From NCBI GenBank assembly GCA_023920165.1, contig CP089275.1, positions 372,001 through 436,000 on the forward strand: a stretch of 64,000 nucleotides of DNA, in the 5' to 3' direction. This DNA comes from Curvularia clavata (Eukaryota). Shown here in pieces: positions 47,759 to 62,199 of this stretch. Each line of letters opens with the position of its first letter. Position 1 is the first letter of the stretch. The notes below the pieces were generated by a model. That model made no database searches. It saw nothing but the letters and a program-made list of their open reading frames with translations, and was not told where the DNA came from. Made by a program: the position numbers and the translations under genes.

Positions 47759-47803
47759 CGGGATCGTTCCCGTCACTTATCTACCGTGCCGGGTCCACGG
47801 CCG
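47759..47803. promoter_or_regulatory. Two CGG-N8-CCG Zn2Cys6-type sites with an intervening GATA site (CTTATC), permease promoter
   Basis: CGGGATCGTTCCCG 47759-47772; CGGGTCCACGGCCG 47790-47803. Confidence 0.65.
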
Positions 47804-48054
47804 ACCCCCGCATTTGATCTTATGCGACACATTGATCCCTACTGGGTCGCCTTAAACAGGCTAGCCGTATCAGACTTGTGCAAGATGCCCTGTGCAGGAA
47901 CCTGACCAGGCAGTCCTTCGTGAAGGATATGTATACAGGGCCTTGGACCGCAATTTCCAATCTTTTATCTCGACACTCTCTATGCCTCTTTCACCTCTTT
48001 ACTATCCAATCTTGTATACACCCAGTCTTGTATAATATTTTGGGCCCTCTGACG

Positions 48055-49972
48055 ATGGAGGATAACAAGAAAGAGAAGGTCATCGATATCTCGACCGCTG
48101 GGGACCTCTATCTAGTCGAGACAACGGGCGAGCCTATAGCGGGCCATGTCGGCAATGCAGACGAGCTCCAGCGACATCTGGGAAATCGTCAGCTGCAATT
48201 GATTGCTATTGGTATGTATTTACTAGGTTATCGCAAGAGCCGACGTGAAAAAACGGTGGAAAAGTCTCCGAGTTCTTGCAGGGGCACTTCACTTTGCCAA
48301 TTCTGAGATGTTTACTGACATGTCTCAGGTGGATCCATCGGAACAGCAACCTTCGTCTCCATCTCCAGTGGTCTGCTCAAGGGCGGGCCCGGTTCCCTCT
48401 TCCTCGCCTACACCATCTACACCTGCATGTTGGGATTAGTCAACAACTGCCAAGCCGAAATGAGCTCCTATATGCCCGTTACTGGTGGTTTTATTCGCAT
48501 GTCTGGTAAATGGGTCGACGAGGCTTTGGGCTTCATGATTGGTTGGAGTGAGTCCTGTGTTCGCGGTGAACTAATTGACTATACTAAATTACTGCAGACT
48601 TCTTCATTTACGAGGCCATTCTTGTGCCCTTTGAAATTACCGCACTGAACCTTGTCTTGTCCTTCTGGCGCGATGATATACCCGTGGAAGCCGTCGTGGC
48701 GGTATGCATTGTGCTCTACTTCTGTATCAACGCATTTGTTGTCAAGTGGTACGGAGAGTGCGAGTTTTGGCTTGCCCTTGGAAAAGTGTTCCTCCTCCTT
48801 ATGCTCTTCTCTTTCACCTTCATTACTATGGTCGGCGGCAATCCCAAGCATGACGCGTATGGCTTCCGCTACTGGAAGAATCCTGGCTCTTTCGCTGAAC
48901 ACATTACAACGGGTCCTCTCGGCCGATTCGAGGGTTTCCTTGGTGCCCTGTGGAGTGCAGCTTTTACCGTCGTCGGCCCAGAGTATGTGTCCATGGTTGC
49001 CGGCGAGGTCAAGAGCCCGCGAAAGTACCTCAAGCAGGCGTTCAAGGCAACATATGCGCGTTTCGGTCTATTCTTCATCGGTAGTGCGCTCTGTGTCGGT
49101 ATTGTTATCCCGTACAACAATACAACTCTAGTCGATATCTTCAACGGCAAGGCCGGTGGCGCCGGAACTGCGGCGGCCTCTCCATACGTCATCGCCATGA
49201 ACAGTACTTCTCCCTTCTAAATCCTAACACGAGTACTCTAAAGCTAATTTCTTCTCTAGACCTGGGCATCCATGGCCTTCCACATCTCACCAACGCCCTC
49301 CTCGTAACCTCGATTTTCTCCGCTGGCAACGCCTACACCTACTACGGTACGCGCTCCCTCTATGGCCTCGCCATCGAGGGCCAAGCGCCTCGCTTCCTGA
49401 GAAAATGCACCAAGGCCGGCGTCCCCATCTATTGCCTCTGCATTACGACCCTGTTCCCCTTCTTCGCCTTCCTCAACGCCTCCTCGGGCTCGGCCAAAGT
49501 TCTGACCTGGCTCACCAACATCATTACCGGCGCCCAAATCATCGACTACATTGTCATCTGCATCAACTTCATCTTCTTCTACCGCGCGTGCAAGGCGCAG
49601 GGCCTCGACCGCCGCTCGCTGCCATATTTCGGCCGCTTCCAGCCGTGGTCTGCATATATCCCACTGGCGTTTTTGACGTGTGTGGTTACGTGCTACGGAT
49701 ATACGACGTTCCTCCCAGGGAACTTCACGGTTGACGACTTCTTCACTTACTACATGATGCTGCTGGTGGACCCGGTGCTGTTCATTGGCTGGAAGCTGTG
49801 GAAGAAAACAAAGTTCATTAAAGCGAGCGAGGCGGATCTGGTATGGGATAAACCGATTATTGATGCTTATGAGGATGCACTAGAGGAGGAGAAAGTAGGG
49901 TTCTGGAGGGATGTGGGGAATATGTTTGGGAAGTGCTTCATGAAGAGGAAGAAGGTGGACGAGGAGAAGTGA
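48055..49972 (+). CDS. APC/YAT-family amino acid permease (proline-permease-like)
   Basis: LQRHLGNRQLQLIAIGGSIG, AEM, YGECEFW, GFRYWKNPG, SPYVIAM, TRSLYGLA.EG.AP; introns 48212-48328, 48548-48597, 49204-49259. Confidence 0.95.
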
Positions 49973-50389
49973 GGGACGGAGTGGATGAGGTCCATGACTT
50001 TGTGGAGCTAAACAGAGGATCCGGTGGCATAATTACATTGTATACCTAAATGGGACGTTTGACGTCCACGGAAATCACACGGTTTCAATCCTATAAATGG
50101 GTTCCGCTCGCTACTCTTGCTAAGCATTGAATTTGACCAGAATGCTCCGACCAGGGCTCTACACTTTCGCAACATTGCATCCCACCCCATGGTAAACTTT
50201 TGAAGAACTGGATTTGAGGTCCTCGTGCGGAGCTAGCTTTGATTAGGCACAATGTTCGCTGCTCGCAGCCACCCAATCCGCCAGCCCTCAAGTCCTAGCG
50301 CGGGAACGACGCATGTCACGCATCACAATCAGCGCGGAGCCTCCGATTGCCAGCCTGCATCTCTCCGCGTCCGCGAATATGCGGCCACT

Positions 50390-50403
50390 CGGGTGGCATT
50401 CCG
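50390..50403. promoter_or_regulatory. CGG-N8-CCG site, aminotransferase promoter
   Basis: CGGGTGGCATTCCG. Confidence 0.65.
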
Positions 50404-50568
50404 GGCATACAGCTCGAATCCCACATACATTGCCCCGACGCCCAACACGGCTAGAGCATAGTCCAGTATACATGTATACATATATACAAGTGCAAAATCC
50501 GTGTGTACCTCCTGTTTCCGCGACATCTTTGTAGCGACTTTCTATCAGGGCTTTCTGCAATTACAAAC

Positions 50569-51900
50569 ATGTTCCGCAGCGTTCCCCCCAGCCCCGCAGA
50601 CCCCGTGTATCTCCTCTCGCAGCAGGTACGCGAGGACACGGCGCCTGAGAAAGTTGACCTTGGCGTTGGCGTGTATAGGAATGAGAGGGGGCTGTATCAC
50701 GAGCTGAGGGCGTTGGGGGCGGTTTGTACGCCAGTCAAAATTGGTAATTCAAGTCTAATCACAAAGGGCACAGGCAAAGCGTATCCTCGCACAGCAAGAC
50801 GCGAATCACGACTACGAAGTGACAACGGGCAGCGCGGCGTTCCTGACTAACGCTGCAAAAGTGCTATTCGGATGGGAGGCAGATATTCTGTCTTCGGGGA
50901 GAGTGACTTCTGTACAGGCCATCTCAGGCACGGGTGCCATCCACCTCGGCGCCCTCTTCCTCGCCCGTACGCCCTCATTCCAAGGAAAGAAAGTCTACAT
51001 CGGGACCCCAGCGTGGGGAAATTACGTACCGCTGTTCAACCTCGTTGGCTTCGAAGTGGTGACGTACAGGCACTACGATGTCTCGACCGGAACAGTGGAC
51101 TTTGACTCGGTGCTTACAGCGACGAGAAGCGCAGATGCAGGGAGCATATTCGTGCTACAGGGATGCTGCCACAACCCATCTGGTGCCGACTTCTCGCTCG
51201 CGCAGTGGGATAGGCTCGCCGATGAGATGCAGGCGAAGAAGCTGTTCCCGCTGTTCGACATGGCATATCAGGGGCTAGGTGCGTCGCTGGATGAAGATGC
51301 ATATGGTCTGCGATTGTTTGCGGGCAGGAACTTGGAACTCCTCGCTTGTCAGTCTTTTTCGAAGAACTTTGGATTGTATGGGGAGAGGGTAGGTGTGCTG
51401 CATGCTGTGAGTCAGGATGCGGATGTTGCGGCGAGGGTGTATGAGAGATTGAGGTGCTTGATTCGGTGGGAGTTCTCGTCCAGTCCGGCGTATGGCGCGC
51501 GACTAGTGAACATTATACTCAGCGACAACGAATTGCGACAGGACTGGCAAACAGAATTAGCGCAGATTCAGAAGCGGCTTGCCGACAATAGAAAAGCACT
51601 GCACGCGGAGCTGGTTGAGAAGCGTAGTGTGAGTATTTCCCATTGCCCTCACTTGATGGCATTTCGCTGATTCGAATATGTCCAAAGGCTCCAGGCAACT
51701 GGAGCTCGATCCTCTCGTCAAATGGCCTGTTCTGTTTCCTTCCGCTGAGCCCCCAGCAATGCGAACGGCTTGCCGCTGAGTTCCACATCCACATGCTACG
51801 GAACGGGCGCATCAACGTGGCCGGGCTGAACCGGAGCAACATGGATCACGTAGCTTCGGCACTCGTGAAAGTGATGAGCTCACCGTTCTCACGCTTGTGA
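50569..51900 (+). CDS. Class I PLP aminotransferase (aspartate aminotransferase family) with PTS1 -SRL
   Basis: KVDLGVGVYR, SGTGA, HNPSG, DMAYQG, SFSKNFGLYGERVG (PLP Lys), GRINVAGL; introns 50722-50773 and 51629-51687. Confidence 0.95.
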
Positions 51901-51969
51901 GTCTACATGTTAACAAGCCAGATAGCTCGTAATGGCGATATCTGGGCAGCACCGATGCAATGTGAGGAT

Positions 51970-52007
51970 CGGGAGCGTGCCCGACATGTTGCTCGGATGG
52001 GCAGCCG
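51970..52007. promoter_or_regulatory. Two CGG-N8-CCG sites upstream of the Zn2Cys6 regulator
   Basis: CGGGAGCGTGCCCG 51970-51983; CGGATGGGCAGCCG 51994-52007. Confidence 0.65.
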
Positions 52008-52340
52008 GTGGCCCATGCACGCGCTAGAATTAAAAGTGCCGTAATAGTATGCTGAGGGAACAATATCCCGCAAGTAGATTCAAACTTGCAGGCTGCATAT
52101 CAGATGACGTGTGAATTCGAAGGACCTCTCGTGAGGGAGCGTTTGTTGAAGGAAACGGAGAACTGTAGAAAGCTCAGATTAGAGAATGAGTCGCGCTAGA
52201 TAGCCACATTCCACTAGCGTTGGACTTCCCCGCAAATTGCCATCTCGTAACGTGACGCTTGACCTCATCTCAGGCCACGCCGCCTATAGTTGTATACCGT
52301 GAGTTCGTTGCATTGCTGCAGCTAGCCATGTGACACGTTT

Positions 52341-55104
52341 ATGACTGCAATGCAGACGATGCCCAACTCGAGCGAACAGCGACGCGCTTCTAAGCGATCT
52401 TCCAACGCGTAGGGAACCCTTCCGATAGACGTGCATCCGCTTATCAGTGAAGGTGCTCACGGTGTCGACGGCAGAAGATCAAGTGCTCGGGACTGGAGCC
52501 TTGTTCAAACTGTACCAAGAGGAACTTGAGCTGTGTTTTTGACGATCGGGACAATAAGGTGCTGGTCACGCAGGGGTGAGTCAGGCCTTGTTTAATTTTG
52601 TTGAGATCAACAGGCACGATTCTGCTATCTGTCCCGAATCAGAAACCTATGTCGCCTTTTGGAATGCAATGGCAATCTGCAAACTGACTGATTAATAGTT
52701 ATCTCTCTGACCTGCAACAAAAGGTCGCTCGTTTGGAGCGAAGTTTGAGTCACATAGAAACTAACCCTGCCTTGGCCCGTGAATCTCGGGAGCATGGCGA
52801 GGATCAAGTTCAGGCTGGCAGCTTCCACCGGGAACAATCTCTTCAGCCCCCTCGTTGTGGTGACCGTGAACCGGGGGAGACCTCTCGATCGAGTCCTACA
52901 GAGACGCGGGACAACTCTCCAAAGACAGATCAGGGGAATGGGGAAAGCCATGAATTGACAAACCCCTTGCTTGAATCGCCCTCCAAGTTCATGGCCGCTT
53001 CATCCGGGAGGTCATTCTATTTAGGGACTTCCTCCAATTGGTCTTTCCATGGCCAGGTGCTGAATGTAGTTCATCAGCATATCCGCAGAACCCCTCTGCC
53101 CGGAACAGACTTCCTGTTCGATGGGTCGGCGTACGATCTTCCTTGGGTAAGTTGTCATAACTTGATACATTGAAGGCCTTGGCTTTGTGTACCTTGCTGA
53201 CTTGCATGCGATTCCCAGGACGGCACTCGTAGTGTGCTAGAGACAAATGCTCCTGTCATTCCAAGTATCGATTACGCCATATTTCTTGTCAATGCTGTCA
53301 AGTTCCATTGTGGTCAGTTGGTACATTTGTTTGATGAAGAAGAGTTCAACGCCAAGATGTATGCGTTCTACGGGAATGCAGAACCCAACAAGCCTCAGGA
53401 AGGCTTGTGGTATGTTCAGTTTCTACTAATCATTGCCTTTGGAAGGACACTTGTACAACGCAAACACCGAGCATCTAAGCCGCCTGGAGCCGATTTCTTC
53501 GTACACGCTCTTCAGCTACTACCTGATACCAGCCGATTGTGCCGAGAACCACTCTTGGCATCAGAGATACTATGCGGTATCGCTCTCTATCTGCAAGCAC
53601 TAGACTCGCGCAACGCTGCACATGTAACAGTAAGCTTTGTCTGTTTACAAATTTGTAACAATCACTAAGTATCATCAAGATAGGCCAAGCGATGCGAATA
53701 GCATTAGCAGAGGGTATGCACACGGACATGCCAGTTTCAGAACTAGGAGAAGCCTTCGTTCAGCGATGTCGCAAGATCTGGTGGTCCATCTATATTCTTG
53801 ACAGGCAGATGAGTTCGCAGATGGGCGTACCGCAGTCCATACGGGACGATGAGATAACGTGCCAGCTCACACACTTTCCTGGCTCGGTTCAGCGGACAGC
53901 GGCGTTGAAGATGCAGATCAGGCTCGCGCGTATATACGCGGATATAGCGAGGAGTAAGTCGGCTGAGCTCTGGTCACGGACATTATCCAACACGATGGCG
54001 ATCAAATCGGGCATAGGTCCGTTCCAGGCTAACAATACGCAGGCGTTTATGGCCCGAAAGGTCGGCTTCGTAAGAAGTTTGTCATTAGTATCAAGGCTCT
54101 GCTCGACGACATGGCAGCAATCGCAGAGGAACTACGAAATTCCTTCCCTTTGCATTCCGATGAGCGGCTCGGTGGTATATCAAGAATGCCTGCGCATCTG
54201 CATCTAATGTACTATCAGGTATGTCAATACTCCATGTGTGCTGCGTGAATGTAATATCTACCAAGTTTATCGCGCCGTACATGCATGTCTGAACTCAATG
54301 GAGCTGCTACATTGCGTTCCCCGCTGATCATTTTGCGTAGACAATCGTTGTAACAACGAGACCACTACTGTTTTGTTGTCTGAAGAAAGTGTTCGAGTCT
54401 CCAAAAGAAGTGGGACCGCTGGTATCGTCTCGCAAGATCAGGCCTCTGCTAAGCATGTCATTGGATGCTTCACAGAAGATTCTCAACATCCTTGAGAGCC
54501 TGCAAGAGCAGGACTTGTTAGGTATAACTAGTGTAGCGTATTGACAAGTCCATCAAAACTGACAGATTAAATAGAGACTTTTCTTCCATGGGACCTCGAC
54601 TCCCTCTTTGTGTCCACAATGGTTCTCGTCTTGATACGATTCGTCGATGATACCCTTTCCGAAAACAGTTCCGCCTGGATAAGCAAGGCCTTTGCTTTCC
54701 TCGATACCATGATATCAAACGGGAACAAAATTGCCGAATCCAGGGCTGCTGAGTTGCGTAAGCTGGAGGAACTGCTATCCGAGTACTCTGTAAACCGGAC
54801 TCGCCAGCAATACACGACACCTCTTCTACCTCAACAACAGCAACCCGTGGGTCAGTACCAACCACCACCAGATAGGAACTTGATGCGCTCCGACATGCAA
54901 TCGCCGCAAATCATGATGAATTCCGAAGCTATGGGGATGTATACTGCATTTAGCGACGAGAGTAGCGGATTCGGCGACGATTTGACTGCAGAGCAGATTC
55001 TTGCTGTGGCGGAGTCAATGGATCTGGGTACGACTGATTGGCTCAACACGCTCGCGACTATGGATACATATCAAATGGTGGATCCACAGGAGCATCACAT
55101 CTAG
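52341..55104 (+). CDS. Zn(II)2Cys6 transcription factor with fungal TF middle domain (Put3/PrnA-like)
   Basis: CSRCRRQKIKCSGLEPCSNCTKRNLSC after intron 52409-52452; YLGTSSNWSF; RCRKIWWSIYILDR..S..MG.P; about 7 introns; start may be 52341, 52350 or 52359. Confidence 0.92.
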
Positions 55105-55417
55105 AATGTTATTATATCGATCTGGGAGTTCATGAAAACGGCGAGAGTTAAGTAACAAGGTCTTGGGATGTTCTTGCAAGTGTTCGGCTCATGGTGCATC
55201 CAAAACACATACAATGCAGAAATTAACCATAAGAGATGTGGCGTGTAGTAAGATGATACGGAGCAGGCTCTGCAGGGGAGACCTTTGGTTTGTTTCGGCA
55301 CATTTGTCACAAGCAAGGAGTTCTCAGTCATGTCAAACTCGACAGTCAATTTTCAGAAATAAAACGATAGTCTAATTCGCGCTCCAATCTGGGCTATCCA
55401 ACCATGAACCCACAACA

Positions 55418-56799
55418 CTACAACTTCGCCCTGACCGGTTGCTCGGACAGATCGCGGAGCTCTCTGACATCTCCCACTCGCCAGCTCACGTCGGCTTCTT
55501 CAATCGTCTCGCCATTGACGGGCTTCGGTTCCCTCCACCGCCACCTCTTGATCGGCTGCTGTCCGCCCGACGCGTTCAACAGGTCACGCACCCAACTACC
55601 TACGATAGGGAACATCTTGAAACCGTGACCGGAATCGCCGGTCATGACCATAACCGAAGCCGATGTCTTGGGCACGTAGTCGATGATGAAATCCGAGTCA
55701 TCGGTATCAGCGAACCAGCACAGTGACTTCTTGACCAACGGTCGGTCCGCAAGGTGTGGCAGTGTCTGACGGAGGAGCTCCTTCATCTTGAGCTCATCCT
55801 CGTACGGTACAAAGCGGTTGACTTCTTCCGGCGCTTTCGACACACCACTTGAAGGATCCGTATTGATGTAGCCGCCGCCCATCGGGCACAGCTTGAGGAG
55901 GTTCGTCTTCGGGTCTGGCTCGAAAAAGAAGCCCAAGTCACGGGCATATACAACGGGAATACCGCGGAGCGCCGCAGTCTCGTCGTCAGTGAGGCGTACA
56001 TGGCCGACAGACCACGACTTTGCTGAGACATTGGTGCTCAGCTCCGGCAGAATCTTGTGCGCAGCAGCTCCTACTGCAACAATAATGAGGGATGCAGGGT
56101 GCACGCGACCATCCTGGGTTCGTACACCAGTGCCCCGCCTCCCCCGACTGGTGTTCTCATAGACAACTTCCTCAACCGCGCCGACCTTCTCACCGAGGAA
56201 AAACCTCACACCGTTAGACCTCGCAGCACGATAAACACCACGCAGCGCATTCGCAGAGTGCACGTAGCCGTCATATGTGTTTATATAGCCTCTCCATCCG
56301 GGCAGAGCGCCAGTGAACTGCCAGCATGCTTGAAGGAGATCTTTACGGTCACTAACCTTACGGACGAAAGGTCTTATGACGGAGCTGCGCTCTGCCGCTG
56401 CTTGAAACCGCTCCATTGTGTCGACGGCCTTTTGGGGAGCAGCTTCCGAGCAGCAGTTTAGAAAACCGACACGGTGGAAGTAGGGGGCGTAGAAGGGTGT
56501 TTGCCATTCTTTCATTGCTTCCTGATTCCTGGGTTAGATGGGGGTGTTTTTCTTTTTCAGCAAACGCAATTTGAGGGGGGGAGGCATACGATTGCAAGAT
56601 CAGTGTACCAGTCGTCCTCATACTCTGCTCGTGCAATCTTATTGAGATCGTTTGCAGCGGACCAACGCGAAGGAATCTCTTCGTCCTTCTCGAAAACAGT
56701 GATGTTGGTGTATCCGTTTCTTGAGAGCTCGAGCGCTGTGGATAGACCAAATGCACCGCCGCCAATAATAGCAATAGGTTCGCTCCCAGGAAGAGTCAT
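55418..56799 (-). CDS. FAD-dependent oxidase of the sarcosine/pipecolate/fructosyl-amine oxidase family with PTS1 -AKL
   Basis: IIGGGAFG, SAANDLNKI, LCWFADT (flavinylation Cys), GDSGHGFK; intron 56589-56522. Confidence 0.93.
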
Positions 56800-57070
56800 T
56801 TTGAGTAGCTGTAACTATTCAATGAAACTGCGGTGCAGGAATGTGTCGCAGAGATGTCCCTACTTTGTAAACAACACGTCGCGAAGCGATTTTGCAACAA
56901 TCTCAACTACAATCAGGCGATGCTTGGCCGGCATCGGAATTACCGGAATAGGAACTGACGATATGCAATTGCGGGGAATTGACGCAGGTAGTGGGGCAAC
57001 GCGAGCTGGTGCCCTACGGGAGGCCTGCCGATGTATTGTCTATCATCATGCACATGCATTGAACTACTGA

Positions 57071-57181
57071 CGGAATGCTTACCGTATGGCTTCAAATTGA
57101 TCCCATGATAGCATACCGTTAACGGAGGCCACGATGCGCTTCTGGAACAAGGCAATGAATACGAGATCGGGCAATTAACCG
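57071..57181. promoter_or_regulatory. Two CGG-N8-CCG sites in the divergent oxidase/membrane-protein promoter
   Basis: CGGAATGCTTACCG 57071-57084; CGGGCAATTAACCG 57168-57181. Confidence 0.65.
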
Positions 57182-57335
57182 AAAGCTCAACACATCAGCC
57201 AGTGACCATTTTGGTCCGCGTTACATACACGTAGACTTGGGCGATTGGATGTATGTGCTTGAGAATTTGTGGACATCTTGGTTTGATATAGTTGGAATTG
57301 GGAAACTGGCCTTTTTTCGCTTCATCACTGTTCTC

Positions 57336-58239
57336 ATGACGGAGCTTGTCGAAACTCAGAGCATCACTCGAGGTTGGCGAAACAGTCGACTTCCTAGCTA
57401 CCTAGCCGGCGATGTTTCTGCAGCTTGCCTCTCAGCTACACTCATATCGCCCATTCTCACGGCGATAGACAAGTGGGTCCCCTTTCACACTTCTCCATTT
57501 TCATATTGTAACCTCTCATAGAGCTGTCGTCGAAAATGTCTCCTCAACCACGCGGCCCCTCTCAACCGCACTGAAAGAAAACATACTCTGCACCATCCGC
57601 TACCCAAAGTCATTCTTTGCTGCAAAACCCTTCTTCTACATGTGGATGCTCTATGCAGCCACCTACACTACTGCCAACAGCCTGAACACCCTCACTAGCA
57701 TCTCCATGAGCAAGTCCTCAGAATTCCTTGCCAATTCACTCATCTTCATCGCAACGTGCACCGTCAACGTTCCACTCGGGGTCTACAAAGACATCTGCTT
57801 CGTGCAAACGTTCGGCAGGCGGCCCCCAGGACCCGTGAATACGCCTCAAACTAAACCACCGCTTCCCCCTCGATCTCCCACCAAATTTCCCAAAGCTGTA
57901 GCAGCAACTTTCCTCGCTCGCGACGCCATTACCATCCTGGGCTCCTTCACCCTCCCGCCCATGCTCACACACCGCATCCCCATCGCCGATCCCGCGGCGC
58001 AAATGGCGGCGGCGCAGCTGCTGGTGCCAGTCCTGTCGCAATTAGCGGCAACGCCTGTGCATCTTCTGGGGCTGGACTTGTATTCGATTCCTGGAAAGGG
58101 AGAGAGAGGAGAACGGGCGCGGCGGATACGAAGAGGATTAGCAGGGACGACGGCGGTGCGATGTGCTAGAATTGTGCCAGCGTTTGGGGTGGGGGGAATT
58201 GTGAACACGGGGTTGAGGGGGTGGTTCAGGGGGGAGTAG
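57336..58239 (+). CDS. Uncharacterised membrane protein, mitochondrial-carrier-like (resembles the S. pombe SPBC365.16 family)
   Basis: SPILTAIDKAVVEN, LYAATYTTAN, GVYKD, FLARDAITI, TPVHLLGLDLY, RIVPAFGVGG..N; intron 57473-57521; family call from memory. Confidence 0.8.
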
Positions 58240-58855
58240 AGGATGGTGGTATGAGGGCAGAGAGGTTGTGAGGGTTCGAATTGAATGTTGATAATATGTG
58301 GGGACGGCGATTAAACAACCGTTGTGTTTGTGGCCAACATCCAGCTTCTAGATAGGCACGTTCCAGAACAGCAGCTTCTTTGGAACTACGACTGTGTTAC
58401 ATTGTTTTTTATGTTTATGCACCTTCATTCTTGGTGAGTGGCTCAGATATGAAGCACACTTAGAAAACCGGGGATAAAGAACATTCAAAAGCGGCAATAG
58501 CAGATCATTTCTACCAAGTGTATATCGCGTAAGAGCAAGCCGCATTAGGCAATGGAACAAGTATGATTACGAATGTGCTAGTAGCCAAGCTAGGTATGCA
58601 TACCACGAGCACTAGGATATTCGAAACTGGGCAGCCATCTCAAGCTTCAGGCACCAATAAAGCCAATGGAGCTTCTCGATATCGATTCATTCGCTTCAGT
58701 GTTCGTTGCATACTAGATGCAGACGATTCGATAGTCGGTTCCAGAAGGCTACCATCGGCTTCTACAGGGCTAGAGACAAGAGTAACCGCCCGGATCATTA
58801 TTCCGTTATCGATCACGCACTACACGTATAAGCTAAAACGCGGCGCTCTGCGAAT

Positions 58856-58869
58856 CGGCTGCCTGTCCG
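58856..58869. promoter_or_regulatory. CGG-N8-CCG site, proline dehydrogenase promoter
   Basis: CGGCTGCCTGTCCG, with TTATC GATA-type sites nearby. Confidence 0.65.
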
Positions 58870-59120
58870 TTGTATGACTACTTATCGGGAGCAGCATGCG
58901 TTGCTCATGGGTTAGCCTACTTTGTCTACGGAAGCACAGATCTCGCTGGAGAAGCAGATGCGGGGTTGTCGTTTTCAGGTGCCTGTGTATGGCTTGGTGG
59001 GGTATACAGCAAGTATATGAAGATGGTTATTTTATTGTAATGGTCCGCCATTTGGTCTCGAGGCTACCTTGCCCATTGAACGTTTCTTCGCTCAACTAAG
59101 AGACGCTACCCGGAATAACA

Positions 59121-60653
59121 ATGCTACCATATAGGATCGGTGTGGCGACCACAAGGAGATTGGCAAAGAATAGGTTGGCCACTGTATCTTGCCTCCAGGT
59201 TCGGTGGCACACTGGTGTCATTCCACCGACGAGGAATGTCGGAGCACACACAGGAATGAGCAATGATACAACAACAATATCGCGGACGACAAAAGTATTC
59301 TCTCAAGAGGTAGCAGCATCAGATGCACCATTGTAAGTATGATTATGGCCCCTCGTTCTGGCCTGCACAAGCAGTGGGAACAACTCAAAAACCTCCACTG
59401 ACAAAATCATGAGAGCAAAAATGCCTCTTGAGATGTTCCTTCGATCTTTTTTCATAGCCACCATATCTTCTAAGAGATACCTTTTGATACCCTCCTTGAA
59501 ATTGTTGTCATTTTTCGCGAAACCAGGCAGGAGCTACCTTTTCAACGTGGATCGGAATCCCGTCCTCCATGGAATCCTCAAGAAGACTTTCTATAACCAG
59601 TTTTGTGCGGGCGAGTCGAAGCAGGAGACGAAAGCTTGCTGCAAGTCTTTGAACAACCTCGGTTTCAGAGGAGTCATCCTCACATACGCCAAAGAGATGG
59701 TGTTCAACCACAAGAGCAAAGCATCGAGCGTCCACGCTGAACAAGCAGCAAAAGCAGAGACCGTATCAGCACATGATCCCGTGATCGAAGAGTGGCGCGT
59801 AGGAACGCTCGCCACGGTCGACATGATCGACAAAGGCGACATCCTCGCACTCAAGACTACCGGTGGCGGGCCCGCCGTGGGAGAGGCCTTCCACAGAGGC
59901 GAGCTGCCGCCACAGCAGATGATGGATGCCCTCGACGAGATTGCAACCAGGTGCAAAGAACGCGGAATCCAGATCATCGTAGACGCCGAGTCGCAGTACT
60001 TCCAGAAAGGCATCGCTCGCACGGCGCTCGAGCTGATGCGGAAGTTCAATCGCGAGCCCAAAGTCGTCATCTACAACACATATCAGGCGTACCTAAAGAA
60101 CCAACCCAGGTATCTCCAGCAGCATCTCGCTGAGGCAGAGAAAGATGGCTTCACTCTCGGCTTGAAGCTCGTTCGAGGCGCGTACATGTTGTCTGACGAC
60201 CGGTCTCTGATCCATGATACAAAGGAGGACACTGACGCAGCATACAACGGCATCATGGAGGGTGCCCTCCAGCAGAAGCTCTGGGATTTTGGTGTCTCGC
60301 GACCGTTCCCGGCGCTCAACCTATTCCTTGCTAGCCACAACAAGAAGAGCGTCATCACGGCACAGCGATTGCATGTGCAGCGGGAAAAGAGTGGATTGCC
60401 TACAGTGCCGGTTGCCTTCGCACAGCTGCATGGTATGTCGGATGAGGTTGGTTTTTCGCTTCTGAAGGAACAGTGCGCAGACGGAAAGGCACCAGATGTT
60501 TTCAAGTGCTCAACCTGGGGGAGCATGGGGGATTGCGTGGCGTATCTTTTGCGGAGAGCGGTAGAGAATCGGGATGCGGTGTTGAGGACTAAGGATGAGT
60601 TCGATGCATTGAAGAAGGAGTTCTGGAGACGGATGGGACTTAGGAGAGCGTAG
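59121..60653 (+). CDS. Proline dehydrogenase family (PRODH), divergent paralogue with mitochondrial-type presequence
   Basis: FYNQFCAGE, VDAE, YNTYQAYLK, KLVRGAY, ASHN, AQLHGMSD, YLLRRAVEN; Arg-rich, acid-poor N-terminus; intron from 59333. Confidence 0.95.
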
Positions 60654-61081
60654 GAGACAGGTTTCACGTCATAAGCGCATGAAACAACATGAATAAAGTC
60701 ATAAGATTGATATTTGTTTGTTTCCCAGATCTTTGTGGGTTTTGTAATCAGCAGTGTTTCTCTTCGCTCCGACTCATTCCCGTCTCTGAGCAGCTATACA
60801 CAGCTGTACGTTGTAGGTCATTCTTGAGACTGTCTCACAAGCACGGAAATGTAATCGTCTATTCGTGTATGTCGGGCCCTATGTCTTCAAGCGACTCGGG
60901 CTGAATATCCCCAAACCAAGAGGTTGCCATGAATATCTGTGTTCTTGGAAAGACATCCGCCTATTTAGATACAGAAAGCGTCTGACTCATCCATACACAT
61001 TGCTAGGCATCATCATCTCTGCGGATCGATGGTGTCATGAACGATAATAATGCATCGCGATGTGGGGCAGGGGCACCCAAT

Positions 61082-61095
61082 CGGCGAGGCAGCCG
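61082..61095. promoter_or_regulatory. CGG-N8-CCG site, P5C reductase promoter
   Basis: CGGCGAGGCAGCCG. Confidence 0.65.
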
Positions 61096-61224: not shown

Positions 61225-62199
61225 ATGGCTGGCTCTACTCTGTGCATTCTTGGCTGCGGTAAATTATAAGACCCCAACGATAAAATCACCATCTCACATA
61301 GAACCCCAGGCAATCTAGGAACATCCATATTGGAAATTTTAATCGAGGCCCCAGAAGGCTCCGGAGTCTGTTTCACGCATTTCATAGCCTGTGTATATAG
61401 TGCTGCATCGGAAGAACGGTTAGCAAAGCGCTTTCCCAAGGAGAAAGAGTCTGGGAAACTTGTCATCTCTCGCAACCAGAACGCACGTGCAGTCTCAGAT
61501 GCCTCAGTCGTGATTCTAGGCGTGGATCCCGCAGACGTCGAAGCAACTCTAAAGGACGACGGCGTCGCAGCGGGTCTGAGGGGCAAACTTGTTATCAGTA
61601 TTGCCGCAGGTTGGTCGCGCGAAAGCCTACAAAAGATCATCTCCTCTGCCCAAGGATCACCAAGCAGAGATGAGAGAACATGGGTCCTCCGCACCCTTCC
61701 CAACGTGGCGGCGCAGGTGTCCCAATCGCTCACTGCAATCGAAGACCCAGACCCAGACATGCCTCACAAGCACATCAAAACTTGCGAAGCCATCTTTAAC
61801 CAGCTCGGCCGCACGGTGCAGCTCGCTCCGAAACTCATGGCTCCCGCATCTGCCGTGGGTGGCTCGACACCCGCCTTCTGGGCCATCATCTGCGACGCCT
61901 TTATTGATGCGTCTGTTGCAGTGGGCGTCCCTAGAAAATCTGCGCAAGAGATGATATATCAGAGCATGCGGGGCTCGGCGGAGATGTTGCAGAGTGGAAT
62001 TCAGCCAGGGGAGTTGCGGGATATGGGGACGAGTCCGGAGGGGTGCACAATTGGGGGGATTATGGTTATGGAGGAGATGGGGGTGAGGGGGGCGTTAGGA
62101 AAGGCGCTGAGGGAGGCAGTCACGCTTGCACGTTTGATGGGCAGCGAGAGGGAAGGGCTGCATATTAATGATACGAGGGAGAATACGGGTAGGCAGTGA
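61225..62199 (+). CDS. Pyrroline-5-carboxylate reductase family (divergent paralogue)
   Basis: LGCGNLG across intron 61259-61309, VISIAAG, RTLPNVA, GSTPAF, TSPEGCTIGG. Confidence 0.93.

Follow-up and report, generated by a model that had tools for sequence, protein, structure and literature searches.

A predicted carrier-fold protein family linked to proline dehydrogenase in Curvularia clavata and its candidate role as an organellar transporter

Analysis of a 64,000-nucleotide stretch of Curvularia clavata DNA (assembly GCA_023920165.1, contig CP089275.1, positions 372,001 to 436,000 of the forward strand; hereafter the window) revealed a gene whose product is predicted to adopt the fold of the SLC25 mitochondrial carriers and which lies within a seven-gene block that includes proline dehydrogenase (PRODH). 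An initial annotation had proposed that the product is an organellar transporter of an imino acid or of 1-pyrroline-5-carboxylate (P5C). Our results support this proposal in part, through the predicted carrier fold, the uncharacterised family, the regulon and the PRODH neighbourhood. Judged from sequence, there is about an even chance that the protein serves this pathway as a transporter of the mitochondrial inner membrane. If it does, the odds favour import of an imino acid over movement of P5C or glutamate by about two to one. The mitochondrial entry of proline is a long-standing gap, and the family offers a testable candidate, tied to PRODH and P5C dehydrogenase (P5CDH) by synteny, both conserved and rearranged, by a promoter motif in common and by a single annotated fusion.

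Predicted fold and sequence features of the family

The AlphaFold model of the Bipolaris orthologue P0003, which is 93% identical to the window protein, was built from a 49-sequence alignment and reached a predicted local distance difference test (pLDDT) value of 87.1 and a predicted template modeling (pTM) score of 0.82. The model contained six long helices. When it was compared with the PDB by Foldseek, the ten best matches were UCP1 (twice), Tetrahymena complex-IV chains (four) and ADP/ATP carrier entries (four). The leading match was 8hbv_A (E-value 1.3e-2, probability 1.00, template modeling score 0.59), and no PDB match was found at E<=1e-3. In a structure search independent of Foldseek, UCP1 ranked first with a Z score of 12.2 (249 residues aligned, root-mean-square deviation 4.6). 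It was followed by a Tetrahymena chain (Z 11.1), a nuclear-pore chain (9.0), another Tetrahymena chain (8.3) and the bovine ADP/ATP carrier (8.1), so that four of the top five rows were of carrier type. We take the Tetrahymena complex-IV chains to be carrier-family proteins; a paper on the Tetrahymena supercomplex reportedly uses, in one passage, the phrase 'mitochondrial carrier fold'.

According to the search tool, Z scores near 12-13 can occur between unrelated helical bundles by arrangement alone, which weakens the case for a carrier. Since helical bundles can reach Z values of about 13, the fold test was repeated with a distant family member. This was L023, an intronless member about 30% identical, modelled from a 25-sequence alignment of mostly distant members. 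The L023 model (pLDDT 90.8) also had six long helices, and its top four rows were UCP1 (Z 12.4, 240 residues aligned), two Tetrahymena chains (10.7 and 8.7) and the ADP/ATP carrier (8.6), with the fifth row falling to Z 6.7. SLC25 carriers were the best structural matches of both independent AlphaFold models, in keeping with the earlier description of the protein as carrier-like. The six-helix, three-fold pseudo-symmetric arrangement of the SLC25 fold was found in the models, and the three-times-two-helix SLC25 architecture of the family is well supported for a predicted structure. The nearest named cluster in the language-model Atlas carries Mito_carr; at a score of just 0.75, it serves as a lead only. 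The fold assignment itself is not new, because automatic pipelines already label some members 'mitochondrial carrier'.

The family shares several features with SLC25 (PF00153; UCP1 and the ADP/ATP carrier), including a length of about 280-300 aa, six long helices in three pairs, and short helices between helices 1 and 2 and between helices 5 and 6. In the clade of the window protein, a proline also lies about 20 residues into each odd helix. Unlike SLC25, this clade is predicted to have a low-confidence, Pro-rich loop (about residues 145-169 of P0003) at the place of the matrix helix of repeat 2.

The sequence differs more deeply, and these differences count against reading the protein as a carrier. 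PF00153 matched none of the 49 members, even at E<=10, and no Pfam family matched the product of exon 2 in the window at E<=0.1. A family profile compared with PDB sequences found no carrier, the sole match being a chance SH2 domain (E 2.6). The motif PX[DE]XX[KR], which forms the matrix salt-bridge network on SLC25 helices 1, 3 and 5, was present in none of the 49 members, while [FY][DE]XX[KR], which forms the cytoplasmic network on helices 2, 4 and 6, was present in one. Comparison of the three repeat sub-alignments with each other by hhalign gave probabilities of 0.1-0.3%; the repeat of about 100 aa was recognisable solely as architecture, not in sequence. Moreover, carrier-fold proteins without these motifs are not always transporters, MTCH2 being an example. 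Because the gating motifs are absent, the known alternating-access salt-bridge mechanism cannot be assumed. The absence of the sequence features that define SLC25 also led us to keep the family apart from Mito_carr; by its sequences, it is a carrier-fold family of its own, outside Mito_carr. A regular-expression search found no canonical carrier in the 445 kb of DNA examined, nor in the rest of the window. A sideroflexin identity was not borne out either, as the weak Pfam matches of the 49 members included no sideroflexin/tricarboxylate carrier (Mtc) family.

About 25 positions were invariant from fungi to alveolates, nearly all of them polar or charged and located within helices (Table 1). 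The pattern N-x6-KD was present in all 49 members, P-x5-D-[RKQ] in 46 and TPxHLLGLD in 45. As read from the alignment, the family has swapped the canonical carrier motifs for its own invariant polar set, and it would illustrate the extent to which a carrier fold can depart from the textbook motifs. The invariant R179-D180 pair appears to recall contact point II of the ornithine, aspartate/glutamate and glutamate carriers. Robinson and Kunji are said to have described, in 2006, an R-[DE] pair on helix 4 as the contact-point-II mark of amino-acid-carrying SLC25 members. The family differs from those members in showing no detectable sequence homology to them.

In a word-indexed search, 746 database proteins matched at E<=1e-3, the best being a Bipolaris maydis hypothetical protein with 93% identity. 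An exhaustive search against representatives clustered at 50% identity gave 1348 matches, of which 352 reached E<=1e-30. Names and taxa were drawn from the best 120 of the 746 and the best 150 of the 1348 matches. Among the matches listed, source names were 'hypothetical', 'Sequence orphan' or an automatic 'Mitochondrial carrier (domain-containing) protein'. The taxa among them included Ascomycota, Mucoromycota (Umbelopsis), a chytrid-grade fungus (Hyaloraphidium), oomycetes (Pythium, Aphanomyces), a stramenopile alga, Chromera and apicomplexans (Eimeria, Rhytidocystis). One record bears the prefix CFRG, which presumably denotes the ichthyosporean Creolimax. The family spans eukaryotes, without a characterised member among the matches listed. 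Literature searches found no paper on the family or on a described divergent carrier family. The initial annotation of the family as uncharacterised therefore agrees with the source names, with the lack of a Pfam match and with these searches, and to judge from the searches, neither the family nor its motif set nor a link between it and proline catabolism has been described. Since the family reaches oomycetes, alveolates and presumably an ichthyosporean, a result obtained in one fungus would annotate more than 1000 protein clusters.

Linkage to proline catabolism and a shared promoter motif

Metagenome contigs were scanned with the family alignment, which yielded 47 loci, and neighbours were called by tblastn with the genes of the window. 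Among the loci with at least 36% identity (L001-L021), 16 of 21 carried PRODH, P5CDH, the flavin adenine dinucleotide (FAD) oxidase or P5C reductase (P5CR); after merging of identical pairs, this corresponded to 13 of 17 distinct loci, with PRODH present in 11 of the 17. The unlinked loci were two contigs shorter than 2 kb (L003, L013) and the lineage L014/L019/L020. None of these four genes was detected in the 23 loci with at most 34% identity (L022-L044). In the window, the oxidase lay at -1.0 kb, PRODH at +1.2 kb and P5CR at +3.0 kb from the carrier-fold gene. Across the survey, the oxidase-carrier pair was retained in nine distinct loci.

The neighbourhood with PRODH, proposed from the window alone, recurred in at least three gene orders (Table 1), and therefore the link is not one frozen arrangement. 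In two loci, L016 and L017, a Put2-like P5CDH took the divergent position opposite the carrier-fold gene. The aldehyde dehydrogenase of L017 matched the yeast Put2 structure 4oe4 with an E-value of 5.9e-132; in the 64 kb of the window, a Put2-like P5CDH was absent at a threshold of at least 45% identity. The carrier-fold proteins of L016-L018 grouped with those of Penicillium, Aspergillus and Talaromyces. A sugar-type transporter of the major facilitator superfamily lies just downstream in L016.

In a maximum-likelihood tree, all linked rows, including the window, fell into one clade of 21 rows with a long stem and a support of 100/99. Two other clades, with 13 and 7 rows, were never linked. 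The long and fully supported stem suggests that the linked clade is a specialised paralogue. Members of a second fungal clade (about 30% identical; L034, L038, L042 and L046) were always arranged tail-to-tail with a GPN-loop GTPase gene and lay near a WD40 gene. This may be plain synteny, because those contigs are closely related.

One database record places PRODH and the carrier-fold part in a single annotated polypeptide. P0208 from Paramyrothecium foliicola (799 aa) carries Pro_dh at residues 199-491, followed by a carrier-fold part at 522-779. Phylogenetically, the carrier part falls outside the linked clade, on a long branch. The record bears the name 'carbapenem antibiotics biosynthesis protein carD'. 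No further PRODH fusion emerged from a targeted search, and 21 of the 22 long family members tested had no Pfam domain beside the carrier part. Two other long members, P0347 (Endocarpon, 531 aa) and P0348 (Fusarium beomiforme, 674 aa), carry PF10558 and PF04479 and may be merged neighbours.

The carrier-fold gene and the oxidase are transcribed divergently from one intergenic region, as initially annotated (Table 1). The CGG-N8-CCG sites reported there were also present, and their number proved to be three rather than two (57017-57030, 57071-57084 and 57168-57181). The two distal sites may fall in the 5' untranslated region, because the carrier-side contigs begin at 57061-57134; contigs cannot, in any case, define transcript ends. 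The window as a whole held 23 such sites where 11.2 were expected, and none of 100 shuffles reached 23. Sites were also found upstream of the permease, the aminotransferase, the Zn2Cys6 factor, PRODH and the reductase-like gene. As a side observation, 12 of the 23 fell inside the 14.5-kb cluster (47759-61095), with one pair (47759/47790) preceding the permease and another (51970/51994) preceding the transcription factor. In orthologous loci, where the background is about one site per 1-4 kb, all 11 of 11 spacers contained one to three sites, including the two with P5CDH in place of the oxidase as the divergent partner. By analogy, the Zn2Cys6 factor of the cluster likely reads these sites. The conserved synteny and the recurrence of the motif in every orthologous promoter uphold the placement of the gene within the regulon.

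Proposed function and alternative explanations

PRODH and P5CDH work on the matrix side of the mitochondrial inner membrane. The first exon of the window PRODH is basic, without acidic residues over about 60 aa, and the N-terminus looks like a mitochondrial presequence. The oxidase ends in AKL (55418-55430), a tripeptide of peroxisomal targeting signal type 1 (PTS1), and [SA]K[LI] (AKL, SKL or SKI) was conserved at the end of all nine orthologues compared (the window, L002, L004, L008, L009, L011, L012, L016 and L021). A C-terminal tripeptide of this type is an established pointer to the peroxisome, and the oxidase accordingly looks peroxisomal from its sequence. The aminotransferase opens directly with an N-terminus like that of mature aspartate aminotransferase (AspAT), without a presequence-like extension. 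The permease, the transaminase and the reductase-like enzyme would, from their sequences, be plasma-membrane or cytosolic proteins. With the oxidase ending in a PTS1-type tripeptide in all nine orthologues, the cluster seems spread over peroxisome, cytosol and mitochondrion. A pathway spread over several compartments needs an organellar carrier, and the carrier-fold protein is an obvious candidate because it travels with PRODH and P5CDH through rearrangements. Like mitochondrial carriers in general, it lacks an N-terminal presequence.

We propose that the clade of the window copy may be a pathway-dedicated paralogue of a eukaryote-wide carrier-fold family. The gene would be co-regulated via CGG-N8-CCG, probably by the Zn2Cys6 factor of the cluster. 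Its co-regulated partners would be the permease, the putatively peroxisomal FAD amine oxidase, PRODH and the P5C-reductase-like enzyme, and in other lineages the Put2-like P5CDH. The imino acid carried would be proline or a close analogue; the protein would bring it from the cytosol across the mitochondrial inner membrane to the matrix-facing PRODH and P5CDH, and a product, for example glutamate or P5C, might be exchanged for it. Candidate substrates of the cluster are proline, hydroxyproline, pipecolate and an N-substituted proline released by the oxidase, as weighed from the fructosyl-amine-oxidase-like enzyme, the AspAT-type transaminase and the P5CR-like gene. The literature searches turned up no relevant description of a fungal cluster of the hydroxyproline, pipecolate or Amadori type. 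A wider proposal is more tentative, and we regard it as possible but rather doubtful. Here, the organellar transporter still missing for proline-type imino acids would be this family as a whole, with the clade as its pathway-dedicated paralogue feeding PRODH and P5CDH, and with the invariant set D-R / K-D / R-D / D / R..R as a gating and binding system unlike the salt-bridge networks of SLC25.

The same physiological role has been proposed for SFXN1 and for TbMCP14. According to parts of a 2025 preprint, the mitochondrial proline transporter 'remains unknown' in its molecular identity; SFXN1 is implicated, and its loss reduces mitochondrial proline permeability (PMC12236812). In trypanosomes, TbMCP14 was proposed earlier, and an excerpt of that report states that its depletion reduces proline-dependent ATP production (PMC4422618). 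SFXN has another fold and belongs to another family, to which the present one has no Pfam match. In Aspergillus nidulans, excerpts of one source describe prnX as a gene without a known function that neighbours PRODH and is induced by proline under the Zn2Cys6 activator of the pathway, and as 40 kDa and dispensable (PMC5983819). Compared by this partial description only, it differs in size from the present protein (about 31 kDa). A literature search on AN1730 returned unrelated papers only.

The neighbourhood evidence for a transporter of this pathway is itself open to objection. Many synteny rows are related Pleosporales-like contigs rather than independent events. L014, L019 and L020 fall inside the linked clade and have no pathway genes within up to 10 kb on both sides. 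The single P0208 record may be a true PRODH fusion or a merged gene model. In addition, the divergent promoter of the carrier-fold gene is common to the PTS1 oxidase.

A location in the peroxisomal membrane, where the protein would supply the PTS1 oxidase with its amine substrate or export the product, seems unlikely to us, yet it is a live rival because the divergent partner ends in a PTS1 tripeptide in every orthologue compared. The common 536-bp promoter and the oxidase-carrier pair retained in nine distinct loci point the same way, and some SLC25-fold proteins are peroxisomal, such as PMP34/Ant1. The rearranged loci argue against it. L017, with 7 kb upstream and 1.2 kb downstream, holds PRODH, P5CDH and P5CR with no oxidase in view, and the short contig L018 shows PRODH only. 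P0208 is fused or adjacent to PRODH, and in both L016 and L017 it is a mitochondrial-type P5CDH that stands as the divergent partner.

The protein might instead be mitochondrial without transporting anything, acting as an anchor, partner or assembly factor for PRODH/P5CDH, or as an insertase- or scramblase-like modified carrier. MTCH2, SLC25A46 and Ugo1 are modified outer-membrane carriers of this kind, having the carrier fold with degenerate signature motifs. The loss of both salt-bridge network motifs and the annotated PRODH fusion would fit such a role. Excerpts of one report state that yeast proline catabolism requires non-transporter membrane factors, the MCUR1 homologues Put6 and Put7 (PMC7519068). 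A non-transport role nevertheless appears improbable. The roughly 25 invariant, mostly polar or charged intrahelical residues may reflect the conservation expected of a central binding cavity, and a single fusion was found. Furthermore, MTCH2, SLC25A46 and Ugo1 have roles in insertion, fusion or the handling of lipids rather than in catabolic gene clusters, and no sequence similarity of the family to them was found.

If the function were unrelated to the cluster, the neighbourhood would be synteny inherited within a small number of related orders, and only the partner gene would be served by the promoter motif. The linked loci are indeed mostly close relatives, the lineage L014/L019/L020 is unlinked, and the two other clades sit among housekeeping genes (GPN-type GTPase, WD40 protein). 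We hold this to be quite improbable, as the link is kept across at least three gene orders and partners, the motif is kept where the divergent partner switches from oxidase to P5CDH, and the stem of the linked clade suggests specialisation. That the gene does not encode a protein at all can, on sequence evidence, practically be dismissed in view of its spliced contigs, hundreds of conserved homologues and confident models, and no argument for that reading was found.

Gene model and other features of the window

Four public sequencing runs, guessed to be RNA, were placed on the region; contig depth was not used to rank expression, and stretches without contig cover, such as 58232-58585, were taken as uninformative. 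Spliced contigs at three introns, those of the carrier-fold gene, the oxidase and PRODH, fit the runs being RNA. The 49 nt of the carrier-fold intron were skipped in contigs of three of the four runs (X1, X5 and X6), which joined 57470 to 57520. The aligner placed this joint 2 nt to the left of the GT..AG intron. This offset could be attributed to the relatives reading AGA (Arg) where the window has AAA (Lys), as the window reads AIDK and the Bipolaris maydis orthologue P0003 reads AIDR. The oxidase intron was joined in all four runs and the PRODH intron in X2, X5 and X6. The carrier-fold gene is a real, transcribed gene.

Splicing by script gave a coding sequence of 855 nt for 284 aa with a single terminal stop, close to the length of about 285 aa first estimated. 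The several hydrophobic helices of that estimate corresponded to six hydrophobic stretches (about residues 22-50, 77-91, 111-140, 170-196, 200-235 and 255-277). The two motifs singled out at the time, SPILTAID and TPVHLLGLD, were both present in the translation, in exons 1 and 2, respectively. The third long helix carries another such motif, NVPLGVYKD. Exon 2 holds this and the family motifs TYxxAN, RDAIT, TPVHLLGLD and RCxRIVPAFGVG.

An in-frame upstream ATG at 57249, which would add 29 residues, was rejected as the start; it is probably unused, because annotated orthologues begin with MTELVE. In runs X5 and X6, 57251-57299 was exchanged for 13 other letters, a net change of 36 nt. At the other end, the stop codon of the window copy directly follows a G run, while the B. 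maydis orthologue continues for about 11 residues (..VVEDGGMRAERL). The letters EDGGMRAERL and a stop are encoded at 58239-58271 in another frame (side region 58222-58271). As the tail reads in this second frame, a small indel would have shortened a non-conserved C-terminus in the window copy.

Table 1. Positions of genes, gene parts and invariant residues, with the gene orders of related loci. Coordinates refer to the window unless a locus is named; residues follow P0003 numbering.
Feature	Position	Strand	Details
Carrier-fold gene, exon 1	57336..57472	+	ATG at 57336; N-terminus and most of helix 1, with SPILTAID; from translation, orthologue start and spliced contigs
Carrier-fold gene, intron	57473..57521	+	49 nt, GT..AG; from sequence reading and spliced contigs
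Carrier-fold gene, exon 2	57522..58239	+	Helices 2-6; stop TAG 58237-58239
Oxidase/carrier-fold intergenic region	56800..57335	.	536 bp; oxidase ATG 56799 (-), carrier ATG 57336 (+)
Amino-acid permease	47836..49972	+	AA_permease (Pfam); bounds approximate
Aminotransferase, AspAT/TyrB type	50569..51670	+	3' end of model approximate
Zn2Cys6 transcription factor	52454..55104	+	Cys6 motif 52454-52534; Fungal_trans 53659-54204
FAD oxidase, fructosyl-amine-oxidase-like	55418..56799	-	Exons 56589-56799 and 55418-56520; intron 56521-56588; Pfam DAO
PRODH	59121..60653	+	Exons 59121-59332 and 59414-60653; intron 59333-59413 (81 nt); Pro_dh E 2.4e-48
P5C-reductase-like gene	61270..62199	+	5' end of model approximate; Pfam P5CR_dimer and F420_oxidored
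Put2-like P5CDH, divergent partner of carrier-fold gene	L016:7980-9498; L017:4549-6404	-	Eurotiales-like contigs
Gene order, window type			oxidase <- -> carrier -> PRODH -> P5CR
Gene order, L017			PRODH, then divergent P5CDH <- -> carrier, then convergent P5CR
Gene order, L016			factor, oxidase, then divergent P5CDH <- -> carrier
Gene order, L018			PRODH convergent with carrier; short contig
Gene order, L021			window order with P5CDH 6.5 kb upstream
Invariant residues, helix 1	P39, D45		Pattern P..D-R
Invariant residues, helix 2	T93, Y94, N98		Pattern TY..N
Invariant residues, helix 3	N128, K135, D136		Pattern N..KD
Invariant residues, helix 4	R179, D180, T183		Pattern RD..T; R179-D180 in mid helix
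Invariant residues, helix 5	Q211, P215, Q219, T223, P224, D231		Pattern Q..Q..TP..D
Invariant residues, helix 5-6 linker and helix 6	R244, R259, R262, G268, N274		Helix 6 pattern R..R..G..N

The remaining genes of the block lie on both sides of the carrier-fold gene. PRODH begins 881 bp downstream and matches Pfam Pro_dh, as expected from its earlier description as the gene directly following. The oxidase is closest to fructosyl-amine oxidases (PDB 4wct, E 7.8e-49), and the P5C-reductase-like gene also matches P5CR entries in the PDB. The first part of the window (1-46655) looks unrelated to the cluster. It contains a tRNA-guanine transglycosylase fragment, a UCH peptidase, a carnosine N-methyltransferase-like gene, a zinc alcohol dehydrogenase, Atg27, a copper amine oxidase (24.8-26.3 kb), an esterase, a P450, an NmrA-like gene and a glycosyltransferase.

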